Shown piece by piece: positions 3,051-60,769 of a DNA stretch of 64,000 bases. The stretch's first letter is position 1. Every line of letters starts with the position of its first letter. The position numbers and the translations under genes are program-made. The DNA comes from Candidatus Parcubacteria bacterium. GTDB taxonomy: Bacteria; Patescibacteriota; Minisyncoccia; Minisyncoccales; JAGMDC01. The notes below the pieces were generated by a model. The model was not told where the DNA came from. It did not search any database and worked only from the letters and a program-made list of their open reading frames with translations. The stretch spans positions 176,474-240,473 of the forward strand of contig JAGLYZ010000002.1 of the NCBI GenBank assembly GCA_023131895.1, in the 5' to 3' direction.

Positions 3051-3092
3051 GTTCCTTCGCCCTCGCTCCCCTTCGCTTTGTTCAGGGTTCAC

Positions 3093-3220
3093 TCGAGCTT
3101 AGTCAAGTTAAAAGTTAAAAATTAAAAATTAGAATTTAAGAAAAAAATTAAATTAATTAAACTTTTAACTTAAAACTTTAACTTTTCATTTTTAACTTTT
3201 AACTAAAGTCCAGTAATTTA
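3093..3220. repeat. Family-2 palindromic intergenic element (AGTTAAAAGT units)
   Basis: caagttaaaagttaaaaattaaaaattagaatttaag ... cttaaaactttaacttttcatttttaacttttaact. Central part nearly identical to 21569-21704. Confidence 0.8.
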
Positions 3221-4483
3221 TTAAACCCTCACTCTTTTGATGTCCGCCCCTAACTTCTGTAGTCGTTCTTCAATCCGTTCGTATCCTCTGTCAATTTGAT
3301 AAATATTATTTATAGTTGTAGTGCCTTTAGCTAAAAGTCCAGCAATAATCAAAGAAGCGCCTCCTCTAATATCCCAGCTTTCAATATTCAAACCATGCAA
3401 TGGCGTCTTGCCGAAAATAATAGCTCGATGAGGATCAACTATTTCAATATCTGCTCCCATTTTTTTTAATTCTTCAAGATAACTAAAACGGGATTCATAT
3501 AAAGGATCATGGATTAGAGTTTTGCCATTCGCTTGAGTTGACAAAACAGAAGTAAAAGGCAAAAAATCAGTAGGAAATCCAGGATAGAAAAATGTCTGAA
3601 TTCTCGCCGGCTTCAAATCAGGAGAATAGTCAACAGTAATAGAATTATTTCCTTTTTTGAACCTCACTCCTATCTCTTCTAATTTATCTAAAAAAAGATC
3701 TAAGTGATCAAGCCGAATATTTTTTAAAACAACTTGACCGGGAGTCATGCAGCCAGCTATTATAAAAGTTGCTGTTACTATTGGATCAGGAATAATTTTA
3801 TGTGAAGCACCATTCAACTTTTCTTTGCCCTTAATAATAATTGTATGCGATCCTAATCCTTGAATTTCCGCTCCCATTTTTTGAAGCATTTCTCCCAAAT
3901 CCTGGACTTGCGGCTCGCAAGCTGCGCCTTTAATAGTCGTTTCACCATCTAATAAAGAAGCAGCCATCATCACATTTTCTGTAGCTGTAACACTAAATTC
4001 TTTTAAAATAATCTCTGCAGGAAAAAGATTTTCTGATTTAAAATCATAAAAATTTTCTCTTTCTTCAATCTGAACGCCAAATCTTTTTAAAGCTTCTAAA
4101 TGAGTAGTAATAGGCCTTAAACCAATCCTATCACCGCCAGGACGAAAGAATTTAAAATCTCTAAAACGAACCAATAAAGGCCCTATTAGAAGAACTGAAA
4201 CTCTTGTTTTATAAATTTTTTCTGGATCTAATTTACTGATATCCACTTGTTCTGCCTTTATTCTTATTTTTCTTTTATCAATCCAATCTACTCGCACTCC
4301 CATATCTTTTAAAATATCAATCATTGTAAAAACATCTTCCATTAAAGGAAGATTATCAATAATGACTTCTTCTTTAGTCAAAAGAGAAGCAGCTAAAACT
4401 GCTCCAGCAGAGTTTTTATATCCCTCAATTTCTACTTCGCCGTTTAACGGTTTCCCGCCTTGAATAATAAATTTCTCTGGCAT
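3221..4483 (-). CDS. murA: UDP-N-acetylglucosamine 1-carboxyvinyltransferase
   Basis: 420 aa; MPEKFIIQGGKPLNGEVEIEGYKNSAGAVLAASLL. The active-site loop reads RPGGDRIGLRPI, with Asp where E. coli has Cys115. Confidence 0.9.
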   Translation of the reverse strand: MPEKFIIQGGKPLNGEVEIEGYKNSAGAVLAASLLTKEEVIIDNLPLMEDVFTMIDILKDMGVRVDWIDKRKIRIKAEQVDISKLDPEKIYKTRVSVLLIGPLLVRFRDFKFFRPGGDRIGLRPITTHLEALKRFGVQIEERENFYDFKSENLFPAEIILKEFSVTATENVMMAASLLDGETTIKGAACEPQVQDLGEMLQKMGAEIQGLGSHTIIIKGKEKLNGASHKIIPDPIVTATFIIAGCMTPGQVVLKNIRLDHLDLFLDKLEEIGVRFKKGNNSITVDYSPDLKPARIQTFFYPGFPTDFLPFTSVLSTQANGKTLIHDPLYESRFSYLEELKKMGADIEIVDPHRAIIFGKTPLHGLNIESWDIRGGASLIIAGLLAKGTTTINNIYQIDRGYERIEERLQKLGADIKRVRV

Positions 4484-8798: not shown

Positions 8799-10241
8799 AT
8801 GACTAATAAATTCAGGGCTATATCAATTTTTGTTTTAATATCTTCATTTTTTCTGATTACTCCTATTTTGGTTTTACACTCGCAGGGATATCGTTTTGAT
8901 TTTAATCCGCCAAGCGGCGGAATAAAAATTACCCAAACAGGGGGTTTGTTTGTGAAGGTTTTTCCTAAAAATGCTGATGTTTTTTTAGATGGAAAGATAG
9001 AAGAAAAAACAAGCTTTTTCTTTGGCTCGGTTTATATTGATAACTTGCTGCCAAAAAAATACAATATTCGGGTAGAAAAAAATGATTATAATATCTGGGA
9101 AAAAAATTTAGAAATAAAAGAAAAACAAGTTGCTGAAGCGAAAAACATTACTTTAATTCCAAAAAATTTAGAGATTAAAACTTTAACTAAAAAAGTAGAA
9201 AACTTTTGGGTTTTATCTCAAGAAAAATTAATTTTTGAAGAATCCGCTTCCGCCTTCGCTAAAGCTTCGGCGGATGAAAAAGCTACGACGGACGAGGATG
9301 AATGGGCTTTGAAAATATTTGATTTAGAAAACAATCTTAAGAACCACTTAATTAGTGAAAAAGAAATTTCTAAAAAAGAATCAGAGCTATTAAAATTAAA
9401 TATTTCTTCAGACAATAAAAAAATCCTCTTGAAACTCGGGATTAAAGAACAGCTTCAATACTATATCTTAGATTTAGAACAAAGCCCGCCTGAAATTATT
9501 CCTCTTGATTTTTTAGAATCAGACGCAGAAAGAGTTGATTTTCATCCTCAAGAGCTAAATATAATATTTTATTTTAAAGATGGTAATTTATTTGAAGTTG
9601 ATTTACTAAAACACATCGAGAATTGTTCTCGATGTGTTTTAGAAGAAATATTGACTTATAAAATTTTAGACAATAATATTTATTATATTAATCAGCGCGG
9701 TTATATTTTTAAAAATAATTTATCTTTTGATTCTGAAGAAAAAATCAATATTGTTCCTTTTTCTTTAAAAAAGGAAACTAAATATGAATTAAAAGTTGAG
9801 AATAGCCTTATTTTTATTTTAGAAAACCAAAGTTTATTTTTATTTAACTCAAAAGATAAAAACTTTGAAAAAATCTTTGAGCCAGTAAAAGAAATTAAAC
9901 TCTCTCCTGACGGCAAAAAAATCCTTTATTTTAATGAACACGAAATCTGGATTTTATTCCTGGAAAAACAAGAAAAACAGCCAAAAAAAGAAGCAATGAC
10001 CAAGCAATTTCTAAGCCGTTTTTCAGAAAAAATCAATGATGTTTCCTGGTTTAATTCTCATTATTTAATATTTGATTTAGAAAGTAAAATAAGAGTCATG
10101 GAAATCGATGACCGTGACAAAATAAATAATTATGAATTGTGTTCAGAAATAAAAAAATTCACTTGGGGTAATGAATTTAAACAACTTTACATTCTTACTA
10201 AAAAAAACGTTTTGAATTTTATTCCTCTATCTTCTTTTTAA
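8799..10241 (+). CDS. Membrane-anchored PEGA-domain protein with beta-propeller-like C-terminal part
   Basis: N-terminal TM helix; PEGA-like FVKVFPKNADVFLDGK...YNIRVEKNDY; SPDGKKILYFNEHEIWI repeats. Contains the GC-rich ASAFAKASAD insert. Confidence 0.55.
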   Translation: MTNKFRAISIFVLISSFFLITPILVLHSQGYRFDFNPPSGGIKITQTGGLFVKVFPKNADVFLDGKIEEKTSFFFGSVYIDNLLPKKYNIRVEKNDYNIWEKNLEIKEKQVAEAKNITLIPKNLEIKTLTKKVENFWVLSQEKLIFEESASAFAKASADEKATTDEDEWALKIFDLENNLKNHLISEKEISKKESELLKLNISSDNKKILLKLGIKEQLQYYILDLEQSPPEIIPLDFLESDAERVDFHPQELNIIFYFKDGNLFEVDLLKHIENCSRCVLEEILTYKILDNNIYYINQRGYIFKNNLSFDSEEKINIVPFSLKKETKYELKVENSLIFILENQSLFLFNSKDKNFEKIFEPVKEIKLSPDGKKILYFNEHEIWILFLEKQEKQPKKEAMTKQFLSRFSEKINDVSWFNSHYLIFDLESKIRVMEIDDRDKINNYELCSEIKKFTWGNEFKQLYILTKKNVLNFIPLSSF

Positions 10242-10894: not shown

Positions 10895-10921
10895 TTATCT
10901 CTTTCTCCACTGCGGAGCGCG
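10895..10921. repeat. 27-bp direct repeat, copy A (duplicate of the rpsI 3' end)
   Basis: TTATCTCTTTCTCCACTGCGGAGCGCG is identical to 11433-11459. Confidence 0.9.
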
Positions 10922-10944
10922 CACCGCACTGGCACTCGCCACAC

Positions 10945-10985
10945 TTGACAAATTACGTGGGATTGCTATAATAAAAACAGGAGGT
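10945..10985 (+). promoter_or_regulatory. Consensus sigma70-type promoter plus SD of the 10991 cassette
   Basis: TTGACA, 16 nt, TATAAT, then AGGAGGT 5 nt before the ATG. Confidence 0.7.
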
Positions 10986-10990
10986 AAAAA

Positions 10991-11323
10991 ATGATAAACG
11001 ACAGTGGTATTCTATACATTGAACCATCGGCTCGTGTATCTCTTCATCCAATCGTCGATCAGTTGACCCGCAAGATGACTGCAGCATTTCGTCGAAGTAT
11101 TCCTGGCCCTGGATATCGTGGATTCCATGTATGTAGCTGTGGTGTATTTAGTTCTAACTGCGACTACAAGTTACCGAACGACCAGATAACTAATTCTCTA
11201 TGTATTCACTATCTGGCATTTCATCGAGAAGAAATTCCCGAAACAGAACTAAAGAAAGCGGGACGATTGGACTACGGCGAAGAAGAGCCAACCGCGGAGG
11301 AACTCAAAGCTCCACGCAGGTAA
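10991..11323 (+). CDS. Small Cys/His-rich hypothetical protein (110 aa) on a GC-richer cassette
   Basis: FHVCSCGVFSSNCDY...LCIHYLAFHREEIPETEL. Own promoter, SD and terminator. Opposite strand to all neighbours. Confidence 0.6.
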   Translation: MINDSGILYIEPSARVSLHPIVDQLTRKMTAAFRRSIPGPGYRGFHVCSCGVFSSNCDYKLPNDQITNSLCIHYLAFHREEIPETELKKAGRLDYGEEEPTAEELKAPRR

Positions 11324-11349
11324 CATTTTTTACATAAGGGCTTCGGCTC

Positions 11350-11385
11350 AAGGTTCACTTCAATGTGAACCCTTTTTATTTTCCT
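11350..11385 (+). terminator. Rho-independent terminator of the 10991 cassette
   Basis: GGTTCAC-TTCAAT-GTGAACC followed by CTTTTTATTTT. Confidence 0.7.
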
Positions 11386-11432
11386 CAAAATCCATGCCGT
11401 TATCTTCCTATCCATGCACGGCGCACACTTCC

Positions 11433-11459
11433 TTATCTCTTTCTCCACTGCGGAGCGCG
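11433..11459. repeat. 27-bp direct repeat, copy B (true 3' end of rpsI)
   Basis: Encodes ...APQWRKR-stop of S9. Identical to 10895-10921. Confidence 0.9.
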
Positions 11460-11936
11460 GCGGGCTCGCTTAAGTCCGAATTTCTTCCTTTCCCTCATTC
11501 TAGGATCCCTAGTTAAATGGCCTGCTTTCTTTAAACGTTTTCTAAAATCCGAATTAAATTTAACTAACGCGCGCGCTATCCCGTGTCTTACTGCTTCAGC
11601 TTGGGAATGAAAACCGCCTCCTTTTACTAAAACCTGAATCTTAAACTTGTCCTCACTTTTCATTTTATCTAAACTTTCACCAGCAATTTTTTGCGTTTCA
11701 AAATCAGGGAAATAATCTTTTAATGCTTTATTATTAACAAAAAACTCTTTCTCGCCTCTTGTCCAAACCCTCACTCGAGCAACTGATGTTTTTCTTCTTC
11801 CAATGGCCTCTATATAGGAGGAAGAGACCTTTTTAGGTTTTTTTTCAATTATTTTAGAAGCGCTTTTTTCCTTCTTTTTGACTTCTTTCTGCTTTTTTGG
11901 TTCTTTAGTTATTTTTTTAGGTTTGATTTTCTCCAT
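11433..11936 (-). CDS. rpsI: 30S ribosomal protein S9 with Lys-rich N-terminal extension
   Basis: IGRRKTSVARVRVW...GGGFHSQAEAVRHGIARAL...RRAPQWRKR; follows rplM. Confidence 0.9.
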   Translation of the reverse strand: MEKIKPKKITKEPKKQKEVKKKEKSASKIIEKKPKKVSSSYIEAIGRRKTSVARVRVWTRGEKEFFVNNKALKDYFPDFETQKIAGESLDKMKSEDKFKIQVLVKGGGFHSQAEAVRHGIARALVKFNSDFRKRLKKAGHLTRDPRMRERKKFGLKRARRAPQWRKR

Positions 11937-12690: not shown

Positions 12691-13468
12691 TATACTTTTT
12701 CTTTTTTATGGCTGGTTTCTTTGCCTTTGTAGGTTTCTCTTTTTTCGCTGGCTTTTCGGTTTCTAATGGCTTCGGCTTTTCTTTTTCTTGAAAAATATCT
12801 GTAAGTAAGGAAAAATGTTTCTTTAAAATTTCAGAGGACTGGAATAGGGCTTGCTCCGGAGTAATAGTCCCATCTGTCTCAATCTCTATTTTTAAACTGT
12901 CAAAATCCGTCCTTTCCTCTACCATAACATTTTCTATATGGAAGGACACTTTTCTCACTGGTGTAAAAATTGCATCAAGAGGCATTTCACCTATTTCCAA
13001 TTTCTCTTTTTTTCTCCATTCTACCGGCTCATAACCAAATCCTCTCTCAACTAAAATTTCCATTTCTAATTCTGCTTTCTTATCTGTTAAAGTAGCCATA
13101 AAAGCATCTTTATTTATTAAATCTAATTGAGCCGGCAATTTAAAGTCAGAACCTTTTACTTTTTTCTCGCCCTTTATAGAAAGAACTGCTCTTTGCGGCT
13201 CATCACTATGAATCTTAAACCTTAATTGTTTTAAATTTAATAAAATTGAAACCACATCCTCTAAAACACCTGGGATAGTTGAAAACTCGTGGGAAATTCC
13301 TCTAATTTTTACTTGAGTAACCGCAGCACCAGGCAAAGAAGAAAGTAAAACTCTCCTTAAAGCATTTCCAACAGTAACACCGTAACCAGGATAAAGAGCT
13401 TCTATTTGAAAACGAGCCCAGTTGTCTTTTTTTTCAATAATTTTTATTTTATTAGGTAAAGAAATCAT
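12668..13468 (-). CDS. rpoA: RNA polymerase alpha subunit, N-terminal domain only, with Lys/Pro-rich tail
   Basis: GYGVTVGNALRRVLLSSLPGAAVT...; 266 aa. After about residue 228 only EKEKPKPLETEKPAKKEKPTKAKKPAIKKKK. Overlaps the rplQ start by 23 nt. Confidence 0.85.
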   Translation of the reverse strand: MISLPNKIKIIEKKDNWARFQIEALYPGYGVTVGNALRRVLLSSLPGAAVTQVKIRGISHEFSTIPGVLEDVVSILLNLKQLRFKIHSDEPQRAVLSIKGEKKVKGSDFKLPAQLDLINKDAFMATLTDKKAELEMEILVERGFGYEPVEWRKKEKLEIGEMPLDAIFTPVRKVSFHIENVMVEERTDFDSLKIEIETDGTITPEQALFQSSEILKKHFSLLTDIFQEKEKPKPLETEKPAKKEKPTKAKKPAIKKKKYNAKTKRR

Positions 13469-13569
13469 AAAATCATTTTAACATCTAAACATTTAAGCAT
13501 CTTAACATATAAACATAATTTAAATTCAGAATGTTAAAATGTTAGAATGTTTGAGTGTTAGTATGCTAT
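13469..13569. repeat. Family-1 palindromic intergenic element
   Basis: aaaatcattttaacatctaaacatttaagcatcttaacat ... atgttaaaatgttagaatgtttgagtgttagtatg; rpoA-rpsD spacer. Confidence 0.8.
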
Positions 13570-14196
13570 TTATCTTGAATAATACTCAAAAATTACAGAA
13601 ATCTCGGCAGGAAAATCTGACTCATCCATTAATGGTTCTTCCTTAACTTTTGCTTCTAGCTTTTCTAAATTGAGTTCTAACCAGGCAGGAAGCTGATATT
13701 TTTTCAAAGCAGCAGGAAGTTTCTGAAAAATGTTTAGTTTCAAAGAAGAAGGATGAATAGTGATTTTGTCTCCTTTCTTTAATTTGTAAGAAGGTATATT
13801 AACTTTCTTTCCATTAATTAAAAAATGTTGATGGGAAACCATTTGTCGAGCTTGAGAACGGGAAGAAGCCCATCCTAATTTAAAAATTACATTATCAAAA
13901 CGGCTCTCTAACTCTTTCATAAGAAAGGTTCCTGCATCCTCTACTTTCCCTCTTTTTCCTAATGCTTTTTTTACGTATTTGCTGAATTGCTCTTCTTTTA
14001 GATTATACCAATTTTTAAGTTTTTGTTTTTCTTTTAATTCCTTGCCGTATTCAGAAATAGATTTTCTTCTTTTAATTCTTTTGCCAGGCGGATAAGGCCT
14101 TTTTATCATAGCGCATTTAGTAGAGAAACATCGCTCTCCTCTTAAAAAAAGCTTGACTTCAGCTCTTCTACAAATTTTACATTTTGCGTTAATCAT
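13570..14196 (-). CDS. rpsD: 30S ribosomal protein S4
   Basis: Start set at MINAKCKICRRAEVKLFLRGERC (zinc-type N-terminus); S4 domain SRSQARQMVSHQHFLINGKKV. Confidence 0.9.
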   Translation of the reverse strand: MINAKCKICRRAEVKLFLRGERCFSTKCAMIKRPYPPGKRIKRRKSISEYGKELKEKQKLKNWYNLKEEQFSKYVKKALGKRGKVEDAGTFLMKELESRFDNVIFKLGWASSRSQARQMVSHQHFLINGKKVNIPSYKLKKGDKITIHPSSLKLNIFQKLPAALKKYQLPAWLELNLEKLEAKVKEEPLMDESDFPAEISVIFEYYSR

Positions 14197-14212: not shown

Positions 14213-14665
14213 TTATACTCTTCTTGCCTTTCTAGGCCTGCACCCATTATGAGGTATAGGTGTAACATCCTTAATAGATAAAATATCAAAACCTCTGCTT
14301 GCTAAGGCTCTTATTGCTGAATCTCTGCCACTGCCAACGCCTTTTACTATTATTTGAATTCTTTCTATTCCTATTTTTTGAGCCCGTTGGATTAATGCTT
14401 CAGCGACTTTTGAAGCGGCAAAAGGGGTAGCTTTTTTTGTTCCCCTAAAACCGATATTGCCAGCGCTTGCCCAGCTTAATATATTTCCCTGCAAATCAGT
14501 CAGTGTAATAATAGTATTATTATAAGAAGAATAAATACAAACTCTGCCTTCGTTTATTTTTCTGGAAGGTTGAATCTTTGTCTCTTTTTTTACAGCAGCA
14601 TCTACTTTTTCCTTTTCTTGAATCAGCTCTTTTTCTGTTTTTTGAATAATACGTTTCTTACCCAC
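14213..14665 (-). CDS. rpsK: 30S ribosomal protein S11 with N-terminal extension (GTG start)
   Basis: GRVCIYSSYNNTIITLTDLQGNILSWASAGNIGFRGTKKATPFAA... Confidence 0.9.
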   Translation of the reverse strand: MGKKRIIQKTEKELIQEKEKVDAAVKKETKIQPSRKINEGRVCIYSSYNNTIITLTDLQGNILSWASAGNIGFRGTKKATPFAASKVAEALIQRAQKIGIERIQIIVKGVGSGRDSAIRALASRGFDILSIKDVTPIPHNGCRPRKARRV

Positions 14666-14755
14666 AGAAGCATACTAACATATTAACATACTAACATATT
14701 AACAAAATGTAAATTCAAAATGTTAAAATGCTTAAATGTTAGAATGTTAGAATGA
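14666..14755. repeat. Family-1 palindromic intergenic element
   Basis: catactaacatattaacatactaacatattaac ... atgttaaaatgcttaaatgttagaatgttagaatg; rpsK-rpsM spacer. Confidence 0.8.
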
Positions 14756-15145
14756 TTATTTTGCTGTTGGAGGCGGTTTTCTTCCGCTACCAACTGTTTT
14801 TCTTACATTGCCGCGAACAGTCCTATTATTGCTTTTAGTTCTTTGGCCTCTAACTGGTAAATTTTTAATATGACGGATACCCTTTAAGCAACCAATGTCT
14901 TTTAAGCGCTTTATGGCAACTATTCTTTCGCGCCTAAGGTCTCCCTCAATTTTATATTTCTTTTCAATGGCTTCTCTAAGCGCGTTAATCTGCTCTGGAC
15001 TCAATTTAGAAGCAGGAATATAATGGTCAATCTCTGTTTCTGTCAAAATTTCTTTAGCCAAAGAACGGCCTATTCCATAAATATAGGTTAAAGCAATTTC
15101 TATTTGTTTGTTTTCCGGGATATTTATCCCTGCTATACGTGGCAT
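14756..15145 (-). CDS. rpsM: 30S ribosomal protein S13
   Basis: MPRIAGINIPENKQIEIALTYIYGIGRSLAKEIL... Confidence 0.9.
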   Translation of the reverse strand: MPRIAGINIPENKQIEIALTYIYGIGRSLAKEILTETEIDHYIPASKLSPEQINALREAIEKKYKIEGDLRRERIVAIKRLKDIGCLKGIRHIKNLPVRGQRTKSNNRTVRGNVRKTVGSGRKPPPTAK

Positions 15146-21568: not shown

Positions 21569-21704
21569 AATAAAAACAAGTTAAAAGTAGAAAGTCAAAA
21601 GTCATAGTTAAAAATTAAAAGTTAGAATTCAAGAAAAAATTTAATAAATTAAACTTTTAACTTAAAACTTTAACTTTACACTTTTCATTTTTAACTTTTA
21701 ACTA
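21569..21704. repeat. Family-2 palindromic intergenic element
   Basis: aagttaaaagtagaaagtcaaaagtcatagttaaaaattaaaagttagaattcaag ... cttaaaactttaactttacacttttcatttttaacttttaact. Confidence 0.8.
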
Positions 21705-22289
21705 TTAAATTTCGTATCTCTTAAATTCTGATACAACGATATTTTCACCAATCCTGGCAATATATTCGTCAATCAAATCCTTTACTGTCTTTGCTTCGTC
21801 TTTTATCCAGGACTGGGATAATAATGAAATTTCTTTCTTGTATTTTGTCAGCTTTCCTTCTATTATTTCATCTATAATCTTTTTAGGCTTGCCAGAATCC
21901 TTAAATTGTTCTTGATAAATCTTTGTTTCTCCATGTAAAAATTCTTCAGGAATGTCTTCTTCTTTTAAAAATAATGGCTTGGAAGCGGCTATCTGCAGGC
22001 AAATTTCATGAGCCAGCATCTGAAATTGCTCTGATTTTGCGACAAAATCAGTTTCGCAAAGAATCTTTAATATAACGCCAATTTTTTTATTTGAATGAAT
22101 ATAACTTTCAATTATTCCCTGCTTAACTTGTCTTTCTGATTTCTTACCAGCTAAATCCTTGCCCCATTTTCTTAAAATTTCTTTGGCTGTGTTAATATCC
22201 CCATTAGCTTGCTCTAATGCCTTTTTGCATTCTGAAACAGAAACATCAGTCTCTTCCCGAAGTTGTTTGATTTGGTCAATAGAAACCAT
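21705..22289 (-). CDS. tsf: Elongation factor Ts (short form, 194 aa)
   Basis: IKQLREETDVSVSECKKALEQANGDINTAKEILRKWG UBA-like N-terminus; follows rpsB. Confidence 0.85.
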   Translation of the reverse strand: MVSIDQIKQLREETDVSVSECKKALEQANGDINTAKEILRKWGKDLAGKKSERQVKQGIIESYIHSNKKIGVILKILCETDFVAKSEQFQMLAHEICLQIAASKPLFLKEEDIPEEFLHGETKIYQEQFKDSGKPKKIIDEIIEGKLTKYKKEISLLSQSWIKDEAKTVKDLIDEYIARIGENIVVSEFKRYEI

Positions 22290-22290: not shown

Positions 22291-23115
22291 TTATTTCTTT
22301 GTTTTTAGTATTGTCTCTTTAACTTTTTCTAATATATATTTTACAGATGATATTGCATCGTCATTGCCAGGAATAGGATAATCAACTAATGTTGGATCAA
22401 CATTAGTATCACAAATAGCAATTACTTTTATTCCTTTCATTCTCGCCTCTTTCACTGCTAAATCATCCTTTCTTATATCTAAAACAAAAATGGCATCAGG
22501 GACCCATTCAAGTTTTTTAAGTCCTTCAAATTTGGTTTTCATATTTTGAAGCTCTCTGTTCATTTTAATCCTTTCTTTTTTCGTATACTTTTCCCATCCG
22601 CCGCCTGCTTTTTTCTTTTCTATCTCTTTTAAATATTCCACTCGTTTAGAAAGCACTCCAAAATTAGTTAATGTCCCGCCGAGCCATCTTTCATTAACAT
22701 AAGGCAACGCGCATTCTTCAGCAATTTCTTTAACTAAATCCTTAATCTGAATTTTAGTGCCAGTCAAAAGTAAAACCTTGTTTTCAGAAATAAGTTCTTG
22801 AATAAATTTCAATGCTTCTTCAAATTTCTTCACGGTTTTTTCTAAATCAATAATATGAACTGTGTTTTTAACACCAGCTAAATAAGGCTCCATTTTTGGA
22901 TGAAGGCGAGATGTCCGATGGCCGAAATGAACACCGGCCGCCAACATTTCATCTACGTCAATTTTAAAATTAGTTTCCTTTTTAGAAACTTTTTTATCTT
23001 CAACTTTTTTTTCTTCCTTGCCAGCCGTAGCTTTAGCGGAGGCGGGCTTCGGCTTCTCTTTTTTAGTTTCCTTTTCCTCTTTTTGTTTCTCTTTGGTTTC
23101 TTTTTTATCCGTCAT
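22291..23115 (-). CDS. rpsB: 30S ribosomal protein S2 with a 48-aa or so Lys/Glu-rich N-terminal extension
   Basis: MLAAGVHFGHRTSRLHPKMEPYL... begins near residue 57. Confidence 0.9.
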   Translation of the reverse strand: MTDKKETKEKQKEEKETKKEKPKPASAKATAGKEEKKVEDKKVSKKETNFKIDVDEMLAAGVHFGHRTSRLHPKMEPYLAGVKNTVHIIDLEKTVKKFEEALKFIQELISENKVLLLTGTKIQIKDLVKEIAEECALPYVNERWLGGTLTNFGVLSKRVEYLKEIEKKKAGGGWEKYTKKERIKMNRELQNMKTKFEGLKKLEWVPDAIFVLDIRKDDLAVKEARMKGIKVIAICDTNVDPTLVDYPIPGNDDAISSVKYILEKVKETILKTKK

Positions 23116-26859: not shown

Positions 26860-27546
26860 TTATTTTTCTTCCTTGCCCGCCGAAGCTTCAGCAGAAGCAG
26901 GTTCTTCTTTCTCCGCCTCTTTCTCCTCTTTCTCCTTCTCTCCTACTTTTTCAACTTCCTCAACTTTTTCTTCAACTGGCTTTTCTAATTCTTCTTCTAC
27001 TTTTTCAGGCGGAGTCACTAAAACTATAACTTCCTCCTGTTCTTTTAAAACTTTTACTCCTTCTGGAACTTGCAAATCTTTTACCATAATACTATCTTCA
27101 AAAGTTTTTAAACTTTCAACATTAACCTTAATACTGTGAGGAAGATTTTGTGGAAGGGCTTTTACTTCTATCTCTTTAATATTTTTCACTAATGTTCCTC
27201 CTAATTCTTTTACAGCTGGTGCTTCTCCTAAAAATTCTAAAGATACTGTTGCTTCTGTTTCTTCATCTAAAACAGGCTGGTAGAAATCAATATGGATAAA
27301 ACTACCTTTTAAGGGATCTTTTTGGAAATCGTGAATTAAAACCAAGAACTCATTTTCACCAACTTTTAACTTGATTAAAGAACTCTCGCCTGCTTCTTTA
27401 AAAACTTTTTCAAATTCTTTTTCATTAACTTGTAAAGAAAAGTTTTTAATTTTCGGACCATACAAAACCGCAGGTAAAAAACCCTCTTGCCGGAGAGTGT
27501 CTGTCTTCTCTTTTTCATCTCTAATTTCGGCTGATAAACTAAGCAT
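26860..27546 (-). CDS. rplY: 50S ribosomal protein L25/Ctc with acidic C-terminal tail
   Basis: RQEGFLPAVLYGPK...LIHDFQKDPLKGSFIHIDF. Confidence 0.85.
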   Translation of the reverse strand: MLSLSAEIRDEKEKTDTLRQEGFLPAVLYGPKIKNFSLQVNEKEFEKVFKEAGESSLIKLKVGENEFLVLIHDFQKDPLKGSFIHIDFYQPVLDEETEATVSLEFLGEAPAVKELGGTLVKNIKEIEVKALPQNLPHSIKVNVESLKTFEDSIMVKDLQVPEGVKVLKEQEEVIVLVTPPEKVEEELEKPVEEKVEEVEKVGEKEKEEKEAEKEEPASAEASAGKEEK

Positions 27547-27638
27547 AATCGCTTCGCTTTCATTTTAACATTTAAACATATTAACAAAAAATAAATTTAA
27601 AAATGTTAAAATGTTAGTATGTTAATATGCTAAAATGA
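27547..27638. repeat. Family-1 palindromic intergenic element
   Basis: cattttaacatttaaacatattaac ... atgttaaaatgttagtatgttaatatgctaaaatg. Confidence 0.8.
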
Positions 27639-27854
27639 TTATTCTTTAATATGGATACACTGCGCCGGGCATCCTTCAGCTGCTTCTTTGGCGCAATCAA
27701 TTTCTTTAATTTCTAATTCTTGTTCTTCTGAATCATCTTCAGTACCCTTAAGATGCGGTTTATTATCTTCTCCAATCTCAAAATATCTCGGGCATACTGC
27801 CTGGCATGCCCCGCATCCAACACATTTTGATTTATCTAAAATAATCTTTGGCAT
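27639..27854 (-). CDS. Small 4Fe-4S ferredoxin
   Basis: CVGCGACQAVCP ... CAKEAAEGCPAQC. Confidence 0.8.
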   Translation of the reverse strand: MPKIILDKSKCVGCGACQAVCPRYFEIGEDNKPHLKGTEDDSEEQELEIKEIDCAKEAAEGCPAQCIHIKE

Positions 27855-36007: not shown

Positions 36008-37306
36008 TTAAAATGTATCGTAATCTCTCATTTGTAGTTGGGAATTTATTTGTTTTATAGTTTCTAAGACAACGCTCACAATAATCAACAAAGATGTTCC
36101 TCCTATTAAAAAGGAAAATGTTTGAACGCTGGTTATACCGCTTACTATAAAAGGCATTACTGCAATTAAACCTAAGAACAAAGCTCCGAAAAGCAAGACT
36201 CTGTTTAAAATATATTTCAAAAAGTTTGCAGTGGAAGAACCTGGCCTGATACCAGGCACAAATCCGCCCATTTTCTGCAAATTAGTAGCAATCGCTTTAG
36301 GGTCAAATGTTACTGCTGTATAAAAAAATGTAAATAAGACCACTAGAATAAAATAGAACATTCCATAAACTAAAAGATTTCTTTGCGGATCAAAAAGATT
36401 ACCAAGAGTTTGGGCGATATTGCCCACCATTCCTCCTACACCTCCTAAAAAACTGGCAATCATTCCAGGAAAAAGCATAATAGCAAGAGCAAAAATAATA
36501 GGAATAACACCAGCAGGATTAAGATTCAATGGCAAATAAGTAGATACGCCGCCATACATCTTCATCCCCCTTACTCTTTTAGCATAAGAGACAGGAATAT
36601 TCCTGCGCGCCTCATTAACTAAAACAACGCTGAAAATTATAACCAAAGCTAAAACAAAGAACAAGACATAAGAAAGAGTTTTCTCAGGGCTTGATTCAAC
36701 GTCAAAATAACTTTGATAAATAGACATTGGAAAAGCTGCAATAATACCGGCAAAAATTAAAAGAGAAACACCATTACCAATTCCTCTTTCAGTAATTAAT
36801 TCTCCCAGCCACATTAAAAAGACCGCTCCTGCTGTAATGCTTAAAACAGCAGCCAGCAGCAAAACTGGAGAAGCAAATTCAACTACTGGCGGACTCTGGC
36901 GCTGAAGCAGACTCAACATTGCAAATCCCTGTAAAGCGGCAAAAGGAACAGTTAATATTCTTCCGTATTGATTGAATTTCCTGCGGCCTGCCTCTCCTTC
37001 TTCTTTATACATTTTTTCCAACTGCGGAAAAATCATTGTCAAAAGCTGAAGAATAATGACTGAAGTAATATACGGGCCCAATCCCAGCATGACAATAGAA
37101 GACCTTTCCAATGCGCCGCCTGTGAATAAATTTAATAAACTTAAACTTTCATTGCTGGCAAAGAACATCTTTAGATTCTCAAGATTTACTCCAGGAACAG
37201 GAATATTTGCCATTAATCGAAAAACAGCAAAAATAAACAGAACAAAAAAAAGTTTGTTCCGCAAATCATGAATTTTAAATATTTGGATAAGCTTATTAAA
37301 CCACAT
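36008..37306 (-). CDS. secY: Preprotein translocase subunit SecY
   Basis: 432 aa, 10 TM pattern, GALERSSIVMLGLGPYITSVIILQLL. Confidence 0.9.
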   Translation of the reverse strand: MWFNKLIQIFKIHDLRNKLFFVLFIFAVFRLMANIPVPGVNLENLKMFFASNESLSLLNLFTGGALERSSIVMLGLGPYITSVIILQLLTMIFPQLEKMYKEEGEAGRRKFNQYGRILTVPFAALQGFAMLSLLQRQSPPVVEFASPVLLLAAVLSITAGAVFLMWLGELITERGIGNGVSLLIFAGIIAAFPMSIYQSYFDVESSPEKTLSYVLFFVLALVIIFSVVLVNEARRNIPVSYAKRVRGMKMYGGVSTYLPLNLNPAGVIPIIFALAIMLFPGMIASFLGGVGGMVGNIAQTLGNLFDPQRNLLVYGMFYFILVVLFTFFYTAVTFDPKAIATNLQKMGGFVPGIRPGSSTANFLKYILNRVLLFGALFLGLIAVMPFIVSGITSVQTFSFLIGGTSLLIIVSVVLETIKQINSQLQMRDYDTF

Positions 37307-37354
37307 GTTCGCTTACGCTCAAGTTAAAAATTAAAAGTGAAAAAGTAAAAAGTT
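37307..37354. repeat. Family-2 half element with GC-rich start-proximal box
   Basis: gttcgcttacgctcaagttaaaaattaaaagtgaaaaagtaaaaagtt, directly upstream of the secY ATG. Confidence 0.7.
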
Positions 37355-37442
37355 GCGAAGAAAACAGATTTTTCAAATTCTGGGGCGTGGGCGCGGCGAA
37401 GCCCGAAGGAGGGCTGAATTTGAAAAATTTTGTTTTCATAGC
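37355..37442. repeat. Family-3 complete inverted pair around a GC-rich core
   Basis: gcgaagaaaacagatttttcaaattc + tggggcgtgggcgcggcgaagcccgaaggagggct + gaatttgaaaaattttgttttcatagc. Confidence 0.75.
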
Positions 37443-39317: not shown

Positions 39318-39409
39318 AAATCATTTTAACATTTTAGCATTTAAGCATTTTAACATAATAAATTAAAATTTTGTTTAAATGTTAGCATGTTTGTATGTTT
39401 AGATGAACT
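39318..39409. repeat. Family-1 palindromic intergenic element
   Basis: Right-hand 59 nt or so (cattttaacataataaattaaaattttgtttaaatgttagcatgtttgtatgtttagatg) identical to the 39800-39894 copy. Confidence 0.85.
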
Positions 39410-39799
39410 TTACCATATTTCACATATTACCTCTCCTCCTAATCTATTTTTTCTTGCTTCTCCATCAGCCATCAATCCTTTTGATGTGGAAATAATAGCT
39501 GTTCCAAATCCTCCTTTTATCTTCCTTATTTTCTGATAAGGAATATAAATTCTCTGTCCTGGCTTTGAAATCCTTTTTAACTCAGTGATAGCCGAAATAT
39601 CTTTATTATATTTAAGAGAAAGTTCTATTATTTTTTCTGTCTTTCTTTTCTTTTTTTCCGTTTTTTTAATGTATCCTGTCTTTTCTAAAATCTTTGCAAT
39701 TTCATATTTGAAAGCTGAAAAAGGAATATCAACCGTAGGCTTTAATACGGCTTGAGCATTTTTTATTCTATTAAACATATCAGTTACTGGATCAGTCAT
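39410..39799 (-). CDS. rpsH: 30S ribosomal protein S8
   Basis: MTDPVTDMFNRIKNAQAV...GGEVICEIW. Confidence 0.9.
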   Translation of the reverse strand: MTDPVTDMFNRIKNAQAVLKPTVDIPFSAFKYEIAKILEKTGYIKKTEKKKRKTEKIIELSLKYNKDISAITELKRISKPGQRIYIPYQKIRKIKGGFGTAIISTSKGLMADGEARKNRLGGEVICEIW

Positions 39800-39894
39800 A
39801 AAAATTCATTTTAACATTTTAACATTCAAACATTTTAACATAATAAATTAAAATTTTGTTTAAATGTTAGCATGTTTGTATGTTTAGATGCAAA
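39800..39894. repeat. Family-1 palindromic intergenic element
   Basis: aaaaattcattttaacattttaacattcaaacattttaacat ... atgttagcatgtttgtatgtttagatg. Confidence 0.85.
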
Positions 39895-40080
39895 CTACCA
39901 GCTTGATTTCTTTACTCCTGGGATTTGCCCTTTATTCGCCATTTCCCTGAAACAAATTCGGCATAGTCCAAATTCTCTTAAATAGCCTCTCTTTCTGCCG
40001 CATCTAAAACATCTCCTTACAATACGAGTTGAAAATTTGGGTTTTTTATTTGATTTTGCTATTTGTGATTTAGTAGCCAT
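39895..40080 (-). CDS. rpsN: 30S ribosomal protein S14, zinc-binding type Z (61 aa)
   Basis: [24 protein letters not shown]. Confidence 0.9.
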
Positions 40081-40081: not shown

Positions 40082-40645
40082 TTATTTCTTTATTGGGAAA
40101 CCTAATAATCTTAATAATTCTAATCCTTGCTCTCTTTTTTTTGCTGTGGTTACAATAGTAATCTCAAAGCTAAAAAGGAATCTTGTTTTCTCCGGGGATA
40201 TTTCTGGAAAAGATATATGTTCTTTTATAGCAATAGTTAAATTTCCTTTTTGATCAATTGATTTAAGCTCAATACCTTGAAAATCACGTGAACGAGGAAG
40301 CGCGATATGAATTAATCTATCTAAAAAATCATGCATTTTTTGTTTTCTTAGAGTCACTTTGGCTCCAATCTCCATACCCTCACGGATTTTAAATGTAGAA
40401 ATAGATTTCTTTGCTTTAGTTAAAACTGGACGTTGTCCGCATATTAAAGCTAAATCATGGACAATTGCTGCCTTAATTTTCTTTTTTTCATCAGATGTTT
40501 TATCTGTTATCATTCTGCCAAAACCAATATTAACCACTACCTTTTCAACATTAGGAACAGCCATACTGTTTTTGTATCCGAACTTTTTTTTCATAGCCGG
40601 CACAACCTCTTTAATATATTTGTCTTTTAGTTTGACAACACTCAT
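40082..40645 (-). CDS. rplE: 50S ribosomal protein L5
   Basis: [12 protein letters not shown]...[11 protein letters not shown]. Confidence 0.9.
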
Positions 40646-40729
40646 TTTAACATTTTAACATTTAAGCATTTTAACATTTCTGATTTTATTTTTTGTTAAT
40701 ATGTTAGTATGCTTAAATGTTAGTATGAT
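40646..40729. repeat. Family-1 palindromic intergenic element
   Basis: tttaacattttaacatttaagcattttaacat ... gttaatatgttagtatgcttaaatgttagtatg. Confidence 0.8.
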
Positions 40730-41065
40730 TTAAATTTCTCCTCCGCACTTTTTACAAATTCTTATTTTAATCTTCTTCGATTTGCTGGCAGATCCTGCTT
40801 TTGGCTTTACTATTTTATATTCTATCCTTGCCGCTTTTTTACATTTAGTGCAAATCAGCTTCACATTTGAGACAGAGATTGAACCAGGCATTTCTACTAT
40901 CTGTCCTTTTTCACCAGTTTTTTTAGGCCTAACACTTTTTTTTCTTATGTTTATGCCTTCAACTAAAATTCTTTGCCCTTTAGGCAAAGCTTCAAGAACC
41001 TTGCCTTTTCTGGTTCGGTCCTTGCCTGAAATTATTAATACTGTATCGCCTTTTTTTATCTTCAT
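40730..41065 (-). CDS. rplX: 50S ribosomal protein L24 with CxxC...CxxC C-terminal segment
   Basis: MKIKKGDTVLIISGKDRTRKGKVLE (KOW); CTKCKK...CKKCGG. Confidence 0.9.
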   Translation of the reverse strand: MKIKKGDTVLIISGKDRTRKGKVLEALPKGQRILVEGINIRKKSVRPKKTGEKGQIVEMPGSISVSNVKLICTKCKKAARIEYKIVKPKAGSASKSKKIKIRICKKCGGEI

Positions 41066-42280: not shown

Positions 42281-42961
42281 TTAAAATTTTTCGCCTTTGT
42301 ATAACCATACCTTTATTCCTATCACACCATAAGTACAATAAGCTCTTGCTGTTCCATAATCAATATCTGCTCTTAATGTTTGTCTTGGAAGACGGCCATT
42401 TTTTATCCATTCTCTACGCGCGATTTGCGCTCCATTCAAACGACCGGAAACCTCTACTCTTGCCCCTTTTATTTCTTTATTGACCATAATCTTGCTCAAT
42501 GCTTGTTTTAATACCCTGCGATAAGGCATTCTCCTTTCTATCTGCTGGGCAATCCATTGAGCAATAATATTCGAATATGTCCAAGGATTTCTAATTTCTC
42601 TAATTTCAATTCTGATTTCTTCTTTTACTTTGTTTAATGCTGTTAATTTTTGATTAATAAGTGGCTTATAGCTCTTAATGATTTTTTTCTCTAACTCTTT
42701 TTTAAGTTCTTCTGCTCCTTTGCCTCCGCGGCCTATAATAAAACCTGGCTTTGAAGTATTAATAATAATATTGACTTTACCGGGAAATCTCTCAATTTCA
42801 ATATTTTGAACCCCAGAATCCTTTAGCCTTTCTTCTAAAAAGTCTCTTATCACAAAATCTTCCTTTAAATATTTAGGAATACTCTTTTTAAACTGCCATC
42901 GAGAATCCCAATCACTTGTTTCTCTCAATCTATATGCTTTTGGATGCACTCTATGACTCAT
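42281..42961 (-). CDS. rpsC: 30S ribosomal protein S3
   Basis: MSHRVHPKAYRLRETSDWDSRW...GRLNGAQIARRE. Confidence 0.9.
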   Translation of the reverse strand: MSHRVHPKAYRLRETSDWDSRWQFKKSIPKYLKEDFVIRDFLEERLKDSGVQNIEIERFPGKVNIIINTSKPGFIIGRGGKGAEELKKELEKKIIKSYKPLINQKLTALNKVKEEIRIEIREIRNPWTYSNIIAQWIAQQIERRMPYRRVLKQALSKIMVNKEIKGARVEVSGRLNGAQIARREWIKNGRLPRQTLRADIDYGTARAYCTYGVIGIKVWLYKGEKF

Positions 42962-43068
42962 GTTCGCTATCGCTCAAGTTAAAAATTAAAAGTGAAAAAT
43001 TAAAAATTATTTATTAAAACTTTTAACTTCTAACTTTGACTTTTAACTTCTAACTTTAAACTTTTAAT
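42962..43068. repeat. Family-2 palindromic intergenic element with GC-rich start-proximal box
   Basis: gttcgctatcgctcaagttaaaaattaaaagtgaaaaattaaaaatt ... aacttttaacttctaactttgacttttaacttctaactttaaactttt. About 80 nt nearly identical to 43909-44018. Confidence 0.85.
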
Positions 43069-43578
43069 TTAGAAGGCTTTTCGCCTAAATACTCTTTTCA
43101 TGCCTTGTGTTATTTTTGGCACATATTTCTCTTTCGTATCCTTTGGCTTTGGTTGTTCTGGTTTGACAGTTGTTTTTTCTTCCTTCTCTATTTTCTCATC
43201 TACAACTTTCTTTTCTGTTTTCTTAACCTTTTTAACTTTTTTCTTTTTAATCTCGCTTAATTCTAAAGAAATATGAGAACTCTTTTTCTGAATTTCAGCA
43301 GCTCTTCCTCTTGACTGAGCATGCCATCTTTTTAGCTTCGGTCCTTCATCAACAAAAATCTTTGAGATATAAAGATTATCTTCTTCAAGCTGAAGATTAT
43401 CTTTAGCATTAGCTATACTTGACTTCAAGAGTTTTAATAACGGCTCAGACGATCTATTCGGCGTGAAATTTAAAATCCTTTGAGCTTGCTCAACTGATTT
43501 TCCCCTAATCAAATCAACCATTAAACGAACCTTTCGCGGCGCAATATGAAGATATCTTAGTTTGGCTGTAATGTTCAT
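43069..43578 (-). CDS. rplV: 50S ribosomal protein L22 with a 55-aa or so Lys-rich C-terminal extension
   Basis: AKLRYLHIAPRKVRLMVDLIRGKSV... Confidence 0.9.
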   Translation of the reverse strand: MNITAKLRYLHIAPRKVRLMVDLIRGKSVEQAQRILNFTPNRSSEPLLKLLKSSIANAKDNLQLEEDNLYISKIFVDEGPKLKRWHAQSRGRAAEIQKKSSHISLELSEIKKKKVKKVKKTEKKVVDEKIEKEEKTTVKPEQPKPKDTKEKYVPKITQGMKRVFRRKAF

Positions 43579-59848: not shown

Positions 59849-60769
59849 TTAATCTATCTTTTTAGCCAGTTTCTCATAAATCTTCTTAATCTCTTGTTTT
59901 GCTTTTAAATTTGTTTCCAAAATCGGGGTTAAGCTGGAAATAGCTTTAAATATATTTTTATCGTAAGAAATTTTACCCAAAAATTTTGGACCAGCCCATT
60001 TTTCAATTCTCTTGCTCAAGCTAGAATTAATATCCCATTTGTTTATTACTATATTATAAGGGATATTAAAATGATTTACCACCTCTAAGACCCGATTTAG
60101 GTCAGAAAACCCGGAAGGAGTTGGTTCAGTAATCAATACAACAAAATCAGCACCTTGGAGAGAAGCAATTACCGGACAGCCAGTACCCGGAGCTGAATCT
60201 ATGAGCATAATATAATTATCCGCTTGCTTGTCCGCCGAAGCTTTAGCGAAGGCGGATGCTTCTTTTTTAATCTCGGTTACTATCTTGCCAGAACCAGTTT
60301 CTCCGGGAAAAAGCTGGCCAGAAACCAAGAAAAAGCCATACTTTGTTCTTTTAATTTTTATTTCACCATTTTTCACTGGTTTCAGCTTTACTGCTTTTTG
60401 AGGACAGATAACTTGGCAAGCAGCGCATCCCTCACATAAAAAAGGATTTATGACTGGCTTGCCTTTTTCCATTTTTATAGCATTAAACCGACACTTTTCA
60501 GCGCACAAACCGCAACCAGTACACTTTTTATAATCAATTACTGCCTTAGATGATGTAGAAATCTTCTTAATTTTCTGCCAATTCCTGTCTTCATTAAGCC
60601 ATATTGCTAAATTAGGAGCATCAACATCACAATCAACTGCCGCTATAAGGGACTGTCCTTCTTCCGCGAAAAGCATAGCTAAAGCAGAAGTAAGCATAGA
60701 TTTACCCACTCCTCCTTTTCCTCCTGAAACCACTAACTTAAATTCTTTTAATTTTTTATCTTTTTTCAT
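59849..60769 (-). CDS. MinD/ParA-type P-loop ATPase with inserted 2x[4Fe-4S] ferredoxin domain
   Basis: SGGKGGVGKS P-loop; CTGCGLCAEKC and CEGCAACQVICP. Contains the ASAFAKASAD GC-rich insert. Confidence 0.75.
   Translation of the reverse strand: MKKDKKLKEFKLVVSGGKGGVGKSMLTSALAMLFAEEGQSLIAAVDCDVDAPNLAIWLNEDRNWQKIKKISTSSKAVIDYKKCTGCGLCAEKCRFNAIKMEKGKPVINPFLCEGCAACQVICPQKAVKLKPVKNGEIKIKRTKYGFFLVSGQLFPGETGSGKIVTEIKKEASAFAKASADKQADNYIMLIDSAPGTGCPVIASLQGADFVVLITEPTPSGFSDLNRVLEVVNHFNIPYNIVINKWDINSSLSKRIEKWAGPKFLGKISYDKNIFKAISSLTPILETNLKAKQEIKKIYEKLAKKID

Follow-up and report, generated by a model that had tools for sequence, protein, structure and literature searches.

A dispersed 30-nt hairpin repeat inserted in frame in four genes of a Parcubacteria genome and recurring across bacterial phyla

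We analysed a 64,000-nt stretch of DNA (the window) from a Candidatus Parcubacteria bacterium (contig JAGLYZ010000002.1, positions 176,474 to 240,473; G+C ~33%), in which a short GC-rich hairpin repeat lies within four protein-coding genes. The host genes and the copies they carry are the following.

8799..10241, plus strand: host gene 1, a 480-aa protein with an N-terminal signal/transmembrane segment, a PEGA-like region and a beta-propeller-like region
59849..60769, minus strand: host gene 2, a 306-aa MinD-superfamily P-loop ATPase with a 4Fe-4S ferredoxin insert (MinD/Fd; Pfam CbiA, ParA, Fer4)
22291..23115, minus strand: host gene 3, rpsB (ribosomal protein S2; PF00318; NCBI entry P0241 is 100% identical)
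26860..27546, minus strand: host gene 4, rplY (ribosomal protein L25/CTC; PF01386 and PF14693 in an orthologue)
9249..9278, plus strand: intact 30-nt unit TCCGCCTTCGCTAAAGCTTCGGCGGATGAA (SAFAKASADE) in the 480-aa gene; covariance model 37.9 bits, E 9e-8
9243..9296, plus strand: entire 54-nt insert in the 480-aa gene, from codon alignment with an empty site (L140) and a single-unit site (L142)
60227..60256, minus strand: intact 30-nt unit TCCGCCTTCGCTAAAGCTTCGGCGGACAAG (SAFAKASADK) in the MinD/Fd gene; covariance model 58.2 bits, E 5e-13
60212..60226, minus strand: CAAGCGGATAATTAT (QADNY) directly after that unit, opening with a repeated CAAG and then GCGGA
23017..23046, minus strand: diverged unit CCCGCCTCCGCTAAAGCTACGGCTGGCAAG (PASAKATAGK) in rpsB, within the N-terminal tail, which is rich in Lys and Glu; found by nhmmer and the covariance model
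26872..26901, minus strand: most decayed unit CCTGCTTCTGCTGAAGCTTCGGCGGGCAAG (PASAEASAGK) in rplY, three codons ahead of the stop; covariance model 13.2 bits

A preliminary description of the window had reported an identical 26-nt module with inverted ends, in frame in two unrelated genes, and diverged relatives of it in rpsB and rplY. All of this was borne out, and the three checks that the description proposed, on orthologues, on degenerate copies and on predicted structure, each came out in favour of its interpretation, with the corrections given below. The 26-mer TCCGCCTTCGCTAAAGCTTCGGCGGA has two exact copies, at 9249-9274 (+) and 60231-60256 (-), with 0 mismatches, and no match was found in 100 dinucleotide-preserving shuffles of the window (0/100; expected 0, observed 2). 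Both copies are in frame and in sense within long open reading frames (ORFs), the product of ORF 8799-10241 (+) containing ...EESASAFAKASADEKATTDEDEW... and that of ORF 59849-60769 (-) containing ...KKEASAFAKASADKQADNY.... The two relatives lie at 23017-23046 (-) and 26872-26901 (-) (nhmmer E ~1e-9 in one search, 3e-8 / 2e-6 in another), and all four copies are in sense and share the frame x-[SA]-A-[FSK]-A-[KE]-A-[ST]-A-[DG]-[KE]. A covariance model with no constraint on the sequence of the stem recovered exactly these four copies (58.2, 37.9, 23.1 and 13.2 bits) and nothing else in the window. A fifth candidate in rplC (46357-46375, PAFAKSLDNKQ; nhmmer E 0.03-0.13) was rejected, as it aligns without gaps to solved L3 structures and the covariance model is silent there.

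Some details needed revision. The 26-mer is the hairpin itself; the natural unit is 30 nt long and comprises the hairpin and a CAAG tail. The MinD/Fd unit equals the family consensus without deviation; the unit at 9249..9278 ends in TGAA and not in the usual CAAG. Pfam matches to CbiA, ParA and Fer4 agree with the label MinD-ferredoxin given earlier to host gene 2, while the label 'PEGA-domain gene' given to host gene 1 fits some homologues with precomputed PF08308 but not the window protein, which has no Pfam PEGA match at E<=0.01.

Comparison with orthologues revealed that all four window copies are insertions, the segment being missing in relatives of both perfect-copy hosts and of rpsB and rplY. 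The closest orthologues of the 480-aa protein (70-71% identity) read ILKE-I[TS]E-DEWALK, and the window protein carries an 18-residue insert at this point. In the corresponding 54 nt, the unit stands between a partial arm (TCCGCT) and an incomplete second copy, AAAGCTACGACGGACGAG, at a site where relatives have 9 nt (ATAACAGAA). Exactly one unit occupies the site in orthologue P0122 (TCCGCCTTCGCTGAAGCTTCGGCGGACAAG), and the host gene of L142 has a single unit. According to the orthologue alignment, the insert lies in a length-variable turn or hairpin loop between two conserved strands. We further noticed that in orthologues P0132-P0136, P0141 and P0154 the same turn bears a different recurrent GC-type insert, W[LP]ASRSSPE[AT]S, which may come from another repeat family.

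Almost all of 60 aligned MinD/Fd orthologues read GSGKVVTEIKKEA-EKFKYD-IMIIDSAPG, where the window protein has ...KKEA-SAFAKASADKQADNY-IMLID; the unit and the QADNY stretch together take 45 nt in the window, compared with 18 nt (EKFKYD) in the orthologues. This helix-end/loop region has received the element in no fewer than three independent insertions, at different points: in the window lineage, in L145, where a clean insert lies immediately ahead of EKF, and in L147, whose copy has the compensated stem TCCTCC/GGAGGA. In an AlphaFold model of the host protein (45-sequence alignment; mean predicted local distance difference test score, pLDDT, 88.9; predicted template modelling score 0.84), the element corresponds to residues 172-181, at the end of a helix (160-178) and in the loop ahead of a strand (186-191). 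In this prediction the insert lengthens both the helix and the loop that leads to the next strand, and confidence drops locally (pLDDT of the block 78-80, below the model mean); on this model the site would be a tolerated one.

The same region holds other palindromes in relatives. In L144 (10508-10576; orthologue P0005), the loop of the element is split by a second GC-rich palindrome (TCGGCCTTCGTAGCCAAGGCTACTTCGGCGAAGGAGGCA), giving SAFADSAFVAKATSAKEAASADK, a nested insertion. In L146 (P0018; also P0013), an unrelated AT-rich perfect palindrome, CAAAATTGCAAAGCAATTTTG, lies in frame in the same loop (…SFKWPPKLQSNFE…), which indicates that this loop accepts palindromes of different families. The string 'PPKLQ' in P0013 and P0018 was considered as an antisense copy of the element and rejected, its DNA being this AT-rich palindrome.

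In rpsB, the relative L268 has ...CCAAAG directly followed by GAAGAAAAAAAA..., and the window has ...CCGAAG followed by CCCGCCTCCGCTAAAGCTACGGCTGGCAAG and then GAAGAAAAAAAA.... This clean difference is exactly 30 nt (10 codons), as are those at L145 MinD and the single unit of L142. One stem pair of the window rpsB unit is broken, and the orthologous copy in L270 has its stem intact. The rplY unit is absent from the L268 rplY tail and from 148 of 150 representative L25 homologues. Both the S2 and the L25 inserts sit in Lys/Glu-rich tails. Outside the window, a YchF gene (L073) has a further clean 30-nt insert, in that removal of SAFAKATADK restores the spacing of the E. coli TKAGIEAANFPF motif.

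The units differ from the rest of the genome in their codons. G+C at third codon positions reaches 0.7 in the unit, compared with a genome value of 0.26. The codons are rare in this genome, and the joint probability of the unit's synonymous codon choices, given the peptide, is ~1e-7. In orthologous copies from genes of 70-78% protein identity, 12/12 and 8/8 synonymous third positions are identical inside the element, compared with a background of 0.72 and 0.71 in the same genes (p = 0.019 and 0.065; ~0.001 when the two values are multiplied). Codon choice and fully conserved synonymous sites together point to a nucleotide-level element: the repeat is a DNA or RNA element and not a peptide motif.

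The inverted ends pair with each other. In the fold of the 30-mer, a stem of 6 bp leads through a 3x3 internal loop to a second stem of 2 bp closed by a 4-nt loop, and CAAG stays unpaired at the end; RNA folding energies are -11.6 kcal/mol in sense and -13.3 kcal/mol in antisense. The internal loop reads TTC/TTC on one strand and GAA/GAA on its complement. The fold is partly lost in the rpsB and rplY copies. Among 126 genome-contig matches, the outermost pair (positions 1-26) covaries, being T-A in 58, C-G in 50 and another combination in 18. The interior of 14-16 nt, TTCGCTAAAGCTTC, is essentially constant (14 nt, TTC-GC-TAAA-GC-TTC); its common variants are Y at position 8, R at position 13 and W at position 19. 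The tail is CAAG, also CAGG or TAAA, which on the other strand places CTTG 5' of the stem.

Metagenomes were also scanned with the pattern CTTCGCTAAAGCTTCGNNNNNCAAG, in which five stem pairs are free and the loop TTCGCTAAAGCTTC is fixed by the pattern itself. At least 118 copies were recovered, with arms that differ widely yet remain complementary (for example CCCGC/GCGGG, CCCTC/GAGGG, TCCTC/GAGGA, CACTG/CAGTG and CGATG/CATCG). Watson-Crick pairing is complete (5/5 pairs) in 56 of the 113 copies with enough flank and reaches 4/5 in another 45. Overall, 93.1% of cells pair, and 137 cells show double changes compared with 43±9 in shuffles (0/500 reach 137); the covariation score is 0.374 versus 0.105, and every slid control stays at or below 0.121. 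In about one-fifth of copies a third arm follows the CAAG (X-loop-X'-CAAG-X). The stem need only pair; what stays constant throughout the family is TTCGCTAAAGCTTC in the interior, together with the CAAG tail.

Searching for degenerate copies of the 26-mer revealed them in the window and far outside it. A genome scan with a degenerate 25-mer, covering one genome per species, gave at least 120 loci, as did a metagenome collection; figures from both collections refer to the matches listed. The repeat is present in metagenomes and in genomes of at least 10 phyla. Among the 80 matches listed in the genome scan are ~15 lineages of the candidate phyla radiation (CPR)/Patescibacteria, 17 Acidobacteriota, 15 Alphaproteobacteria (including two Bradyrhizobium isolates and a complete Maricaulis chromosome), 9 Bacteroidota, 6 Planctomycetota, 4 Verrucomicrobiota, 3 Gammaproteobacteria, 3 Omnitrophota, 2 Nitrospirota and 1 Spirochaetia. 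The family is not CPR-specific. Flanks of copies across genomes are unrelated. Tandem arrays with periods of 30-36 nt occur in L103, L082 and L114, and in Acidobacteriota the repeat forms inverted doublets able to fold into long hairpins. Viral contigs gave 17 matches, while a search of plasmids (PLSDB) gave no full-length match and one partial match of 23 nt, in Thermus; neither phages nor plasmids emerge as vehicles.

At low-GC loci, 25 of 57 matches lie inside ORFs of at least 150 aa (survey A), and 29 of 67 (~43%) inside ORFs of at least 200 aa (survey B). The reading frames used, with counts in surveys A and B, are given below.

xSFAKASxxK, sense: 9 and 13
..EALAK.., antisense: 9 and 9
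..SLKLRR.., sense: 3 and 4
..RRSFSEGG, antisense: 3 and 3
PPKLQRRR (G variant), antisense: 1 and 0

Sense and antisense copies number 12 and 13 in survey A and 17 and 12 in survey B. All of the hosts tested (10/10) have a Pfam domain that spans the insert; they are Tgt (two cases), a pyridine-nucleotide disulphide oxidoreductase, RlmN, YchF, a P-type ATPase, PheT, a class I aminoacyl-tRNA synthetase, a radical-SAM/SPASM protein and an AIR-carboxylase-like protein. From their motifs, further hosts are presumably Lon, ThrRS, TsaD, MnmA, MiaA, Fpg, UvrD-type helicases and the L7/L12 hinge. Two loci deserve mention in their own right. A class I aminoacyl-tRNA synthetase gene in L110 carries two copies with different stems (PSFVKASEGK and PAFAKASAGR). 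In pheT of L097, a Pfam NlpC/P60 domain is embedded in the phenylalanyl-tRNA synthetase beta chain, and an antisense element is present there too (SAEALAKAD).

Element cores also lie close to tRNA gene ends, 22 of them within 10 nt and 29 within 50 nt when both scans are taken together; the loci contain 103 tRNAs in 1.6 Mb. In 11 cases (L003, L030, L104, L184, L226, L228, L254, L256, L257, L264 and L266) the element is immediately upstream of the tRNA in antisense, and its 3' hairpin arm is the first 1-6 nt of the mature tRNA, as in ...GCGGGC-TTG-CCCGCC-GAAGCTTTAGCGAA-GGCGGG[tRNA]. These upstream copies bear the third arm, giving an alternative hairpin with a CTTG tetraloop. In 4 cases (L203, L206, L249 and L071) a sense copy lies downstream of the tRNA, with the encoded CCA forming part of its 5' arm (CCATCC/GGATGG, CCACCC/GGGTGG). 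T runs come after several of the antisense copies found downstream. We considered a sigma-70 promoter for the upstream arrangement and rejected it, as the spacer is too short by eye. The association may reflect targeting, microhomology at the junction or a function at tRNA flanks.

Occupancy of the four window sites was compared with that in two relatives; the three genomes are about equally distant from each other.

Window: 480-aa host filled, MinD/Fd filled, rpsB filled, rplY filled
Scaffold_3 (L142, L268; three sites compared): 480-aa host filled, rpsB empty, rplY empty
GCA_030612885.1 (L138, L140, L270; three sites compared): 480-aa host empty, MinD/Fd empty, rpsB filled

Presence and absence form a mosaic. 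Judging from these alleles, no rooted tree of the three relatives would fit it without repeated gain at the same site or precise loss.

We consider it probable that the element is a dispersed hairpin repeat akin to repetitive extragenic palindromic (REP) sequences and Rickettsia palindromic elements (RPEs), whose length of ten codons and four stop-free frames let copies persist in the genes of a compact genome. The repeat would be copied into new sites within genomes, possibly through copying of a folded single strand, for example by a nuclease of HUH/Y1 type which would recognise the loop and cleave close to CAAG, in the way that RAYTs act on REPs. As the 30-nt unit is exactly ten codons long and 4/6 of its reading frames are stop-free, copies at tolerant protein sites would not destroy the gene. 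Surface loops, helix ends and disordered Lys/Glu-rich tails would be such landing places. In an AT-rich genome packed with genes and nearly devoid of intergenic space, the surviving copies would be those in tolerant genic sites, read through as decapeptides of the xSAFAKASADK type in sense or the ..EALAK.. type in antisense and probably neutral, or nearly so, for the host proteins.

Several points weigh against this picture of dispersal. No transposase or other mobilising gene was identified, the ORFs annotated being a part of those in the 64-kb window. The four sites with known empty alleles show no consistent target-site duplication, only an ambiguous AAG at rpsB. Filled and empty alleles were not seen within one population, so that mobility is inferred from comparative patterns only, and translation of the inserts is putative. 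In old orthologous copies, the complete conservation of synonymous sites suggests that the sequence is under selection or that conversion is still going on, and not that the copies decay neutrally. Tight fusion to tRNA ends, with tRNA nucleotides serving as one arm, hints at a host function or a targeting rule beyond the proposed model. Finally, REPs are normally lineage-specific, and it is unusual among them for a loop to be near-invariant from phylum to phylum, a feature that selfish spread alone does not explain. An autonomous parent was sought between two inverted copies in L031, which flank katG, and no transposase was found there. An origin by fold-back synthesis was rejected, the TTC/TTC internal loop not being complementary.

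Invariance of the loop, conservation at synonymous sites and identity across phyla all demand something that reads the loop. A widely conserved reading factor would explain the near-identity from Parcubacteria to Bradyrhizobium. More speculatively, the family may form an undescribed pan-bacterial class of 30-nt 'codon-neutral' hairpins, specific in the loop TTCGCTAAAGCTTC and CAAG, free to covary in the stem and read by such a factor. These elements would target tRNA termini, with tRNA nucleotides borrowed for one arm, colonise essential coding sequences in both orientations and leave decapeptides in hundreds of proteins of streamlined CPR genomes. We put this fuller proposal forward tentatively and regard it as doubtful.

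The main rival, which we judge unlikely, is that the hairpin is primarily a host-functional nucleic-acid signal, acting as RNA or single-stranded DNA at tRNA flanks in precursor processing, 3' end protection, termination or as the binding site of a conserved factor, the genic copies being by-products of duplication. A conserved reader would then account for the constancy of the loop from phylum to phylum, and an invariant loop on a covarying stem is what protein-binding RNA hairpins show. The 22 cores within 10 nt of tRNA ends, together with the 11 upstream and 4 downstream arm-sharing cases, speak for it. So does orientation at these sites: 20/29 tRNA-adjacent copies are antisense to the tRNA, which puts the GAA/GAA internal loop in the transcript, and some are followed by T runs. 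Mismatches at positions 1-26 are C-A in 9 copies and T-G in 2, C-A corresponding to U-G wobbles on antisense RNA, and the conservation of synonymous sites in genic copies points the same way. Genic copies, however, lack an orientation bias (12 versus 13; 17 versus 12) and occupy dozens of unrelated genes at non-homologous sites, with most orthologues free of them. The stem is partly lost in 2/4 window copies, no Rfam family matches, and the window's single tRNA has no adjoining copy. A signal of this kind and the dispersed repeat are not mutually exclusive.

A peptide-level feature, that is, an Ala-rich linker ASAFAKASAD selected independently in several proteins with incidental nucleotide identity, is highly improbable. 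It would account for the shared frame and sense of 4/4 window copies and their similar Ala/Ser/Lys peptides, and the two commonest frames in other genomes are both Ala-rich and helix-compatible. Against it stand the identical 26 nt in rare codons (~1e-7 given the peptide), the same DNA in antisense or other frames (RRSFSEGG, PPSLKLRR), between genes and beside tRNAs, and stem covariation that alters the peptide and keeps the pairing; the orthologues, moreover, are without the segment. A peptide conserved as a motif in orthologues had been named in the preliminary description as evidence against its own reading, and none is seen. An artefact or recent local event, whether a chimeric assembly or a tract of gene conversion linking the two genes, is barely credible even for a metagenome-assembled genome whose perfect copies are identical over 26 nt: that identity ends exactly at the hairpin, with unrelated flanks on either side, and hence no longer conversion tract joins the copies, a tract much longer than 26 nt having been the other finding that would have told against the preliminary description; the inserts recur in independently assembled, near-identical proteins (P0001 and P0121, 99%; P0241, 100%, NCBI) and in diverged orthologues (P0002, P0005, P0122 and P0242); and the element occurs in isolates and a complete genome, with reading frames intact. 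The peptide motif, the conversion tract and the assembly artefact are effectively excluded.

The window contains other repeats. A 27-nt direct repeat, TTATCTCTTTCTCCACTGCGGAGCGCG (10895-10921 and 11433-11460), brackets ~510 bp of higher-GC DNA, its second copy being the 3' coding end of rpsI/S9. The bracketed DNA has one plus-strand ORF (10991-11323; 110 aa, Cys-rich, no Pfam match). In relatives, a Cas4-like PD-(D/E)XK gene directly adjoins S9/L13, and 10895-11460 thus looks like a small insertion with a 27-bp target duplication. Three further kinds of intergenic or upstream repeat were noted.

~1950-2050, 13463-13575, 14660-14768, 27561-27643, 39318-39415, 39800-39900, 40637-40736, 48243-48348 and 58563-58638: AT-rich intergenic palindromes of 60-100 nt with 8-nt periodic motifs of the AACATTTT / AATGTTAA type, which may be bidirectional terminators or a second repeat family
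3088-3223, 21577-21729, 37304-37364, 42959-43081, 43906-44042 and 53431-53501: another family of AT-rich palindromes between genes (CAAGTTAAAAGT...ACTTTTAACTT), frequently with a short GC-rich stretch, CATGTTCGCT(A)TCGCT, ahead of it
54146-54190 and 55503-55545: a common GC-rich module of ~45 nt, GCGCGAATTACTCTCTC(TC)CTTGCC..CACCGAGCTT, upstream of minus-strand genes, with a Shine-Dalgarno-like run GGAGAGAG on the minus strand

If dispersal of the hairpin is the correct explanation, selfish DNA in protein genes would extend from Rickettsia and a few REP-rich genomes to one sequence family spanning many phyla, including ultra-small CPR genomes, where intergenic refuges hardly exist. In practice, its decapeptides (xSFAKASxxK, ..EALAK.., ..SLKLRR.. 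and ..RRSFSEGG) pollute alignments, domain boundaries and structure predictions of metagenomic proteins, and they also create spurious small ORFs. The invariant loop, covarying stem and fusion to tRNA ends give a testable handle on the reading factor, and filled and empty sites can serve as markers of strain-level evolution in uncultured lineages.

The statement in the preliminary description that no equivalent had been described for CPR genomes holds for the literature searched, in which few subscription journals were covered: neither the sequence itself nor any REP-like element of CPR genomes proved to be described there, matches to sequence strings being HindIII-site primers and the remainder general work on REPs and RPEs. 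It is too narrow in that the family extends beyond CPR, and intragenic REPs were already known as a class (PMC3733652). Rfam 15 at the gathering threshold gave only small-subunit rRNA and one tRNA in the window, with no match on the element, and a search of eight element-bearing loci at E<=1 gave nothing credible (a sub-threshold Gut-1 in L103, 25.9 bits against a gathering score of 50).

Among known systems, miniature inverted-repeat transposable elements share the terminal inverted repeats of a parent insertion sequence, produce target-site duplications and usually measure 50-500 bp; a 30-nt repeat without consistent duplication differs from them on these counts. Yeast mitochondrial mobile G+C-rich clusters and the double-hairpin elements of fungal and algal organelles are short GC-rich palindromes that invade compact AT-rich genomes, some in frame in protein genes (e.g. 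var1) or in tandem arrays, with lengths of ~30-50+ bp and defined target duplications. Unlike our repeat, these are organellar, longer, unrelated to it in sequence and not part of a cross-phylum family. The subterminal hairpins of IS200/IS605 elements, recognized by HUH Y1 transposases (PMC6006769), offer a possible analogy in folded-strand recognition, where the structure and a few particular bases count, an adjacent conserved tetranucleotide and the lack of target duplication. In contrast to those elements, neither a transposase gene nor a two-ended element was found here. To our knowledge, a single 30-nt hairpin is also far smaller than any autonomous or MITE-like IS200/IS605 derivative.

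RPEs, reportedly described by Ogata and colleagues in 2000 as RPE-1 to RPE-8, are hairpin repeats of a small AT-rich genome. They lie in intergenic DNA and also, in frame, within unrelated genes, many of them essential, where they add a short peptide at tolerated protein positions. We know of no transposase for them. RPE-1 measures ~100-150 bp, and RPEs are not known outside Rickettsia, Wolbachia having a different family. The likeness to RPEs drawn in the preliminary description stands as regards the hairpin palindrome, the in-frame copies in unrelated genes and their absence from orthologues, but not as regards size and lineage: the present repeat is 30 nt long, has a fixed loop and a covarying stem, occurs in at least 10 phyla and has a host of Parcubacteria/Minisyncoccales type. 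Size and lineage set it apart from RPEs, and we claim no sequence relationship. RPE-4 and RPE-6 have been equated with CGTC-tagged REPs (PMC3733652).

Di Nocera et al. (2013) described intragenic copies of GTAG- and CGTC-tagged REPs outside Rickettsia (PMC3733652). Tagged REPs are GC-rich stem-loops of 20-40 bp with a short unpaired tetranucleotide at one end, arranged as singletons, inverted dimers or clusters; a fraction lies in ORFs, often replication, repair or translation genes, and encodes ~10-30 residues, and the CGTC REPs lack a dedicated transposase (PMC3733652). In the REPIN/RAYT system (PMC3116915), the repeats flank a single-copy gene for RAYT, a Y1 HUH transposase, within one genome. 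Our repeat differs in its tag, CAAG (CTTG) instead of GTAG or CGTC; GTAG is confined to the W=A variant, within whose loop it appears. It is the stem that defines REP families, which are mostly species- or genus-specific, whereas here the loop is constant across phyla; REPs are also predominantly extragenic and downstream of ORFs, whereas the window copies are 4/4 intragenic and ~43% of those in low-GC contigs are genic. The repeat shares with tagged REPs its size, its GC-rich imperfect palindrome, the tetranucleotide at one end, a dispersed mode of occurrence (4 copies in the window and many beyond it) and, in Acidobacteriota, the formation of inverted dimers.

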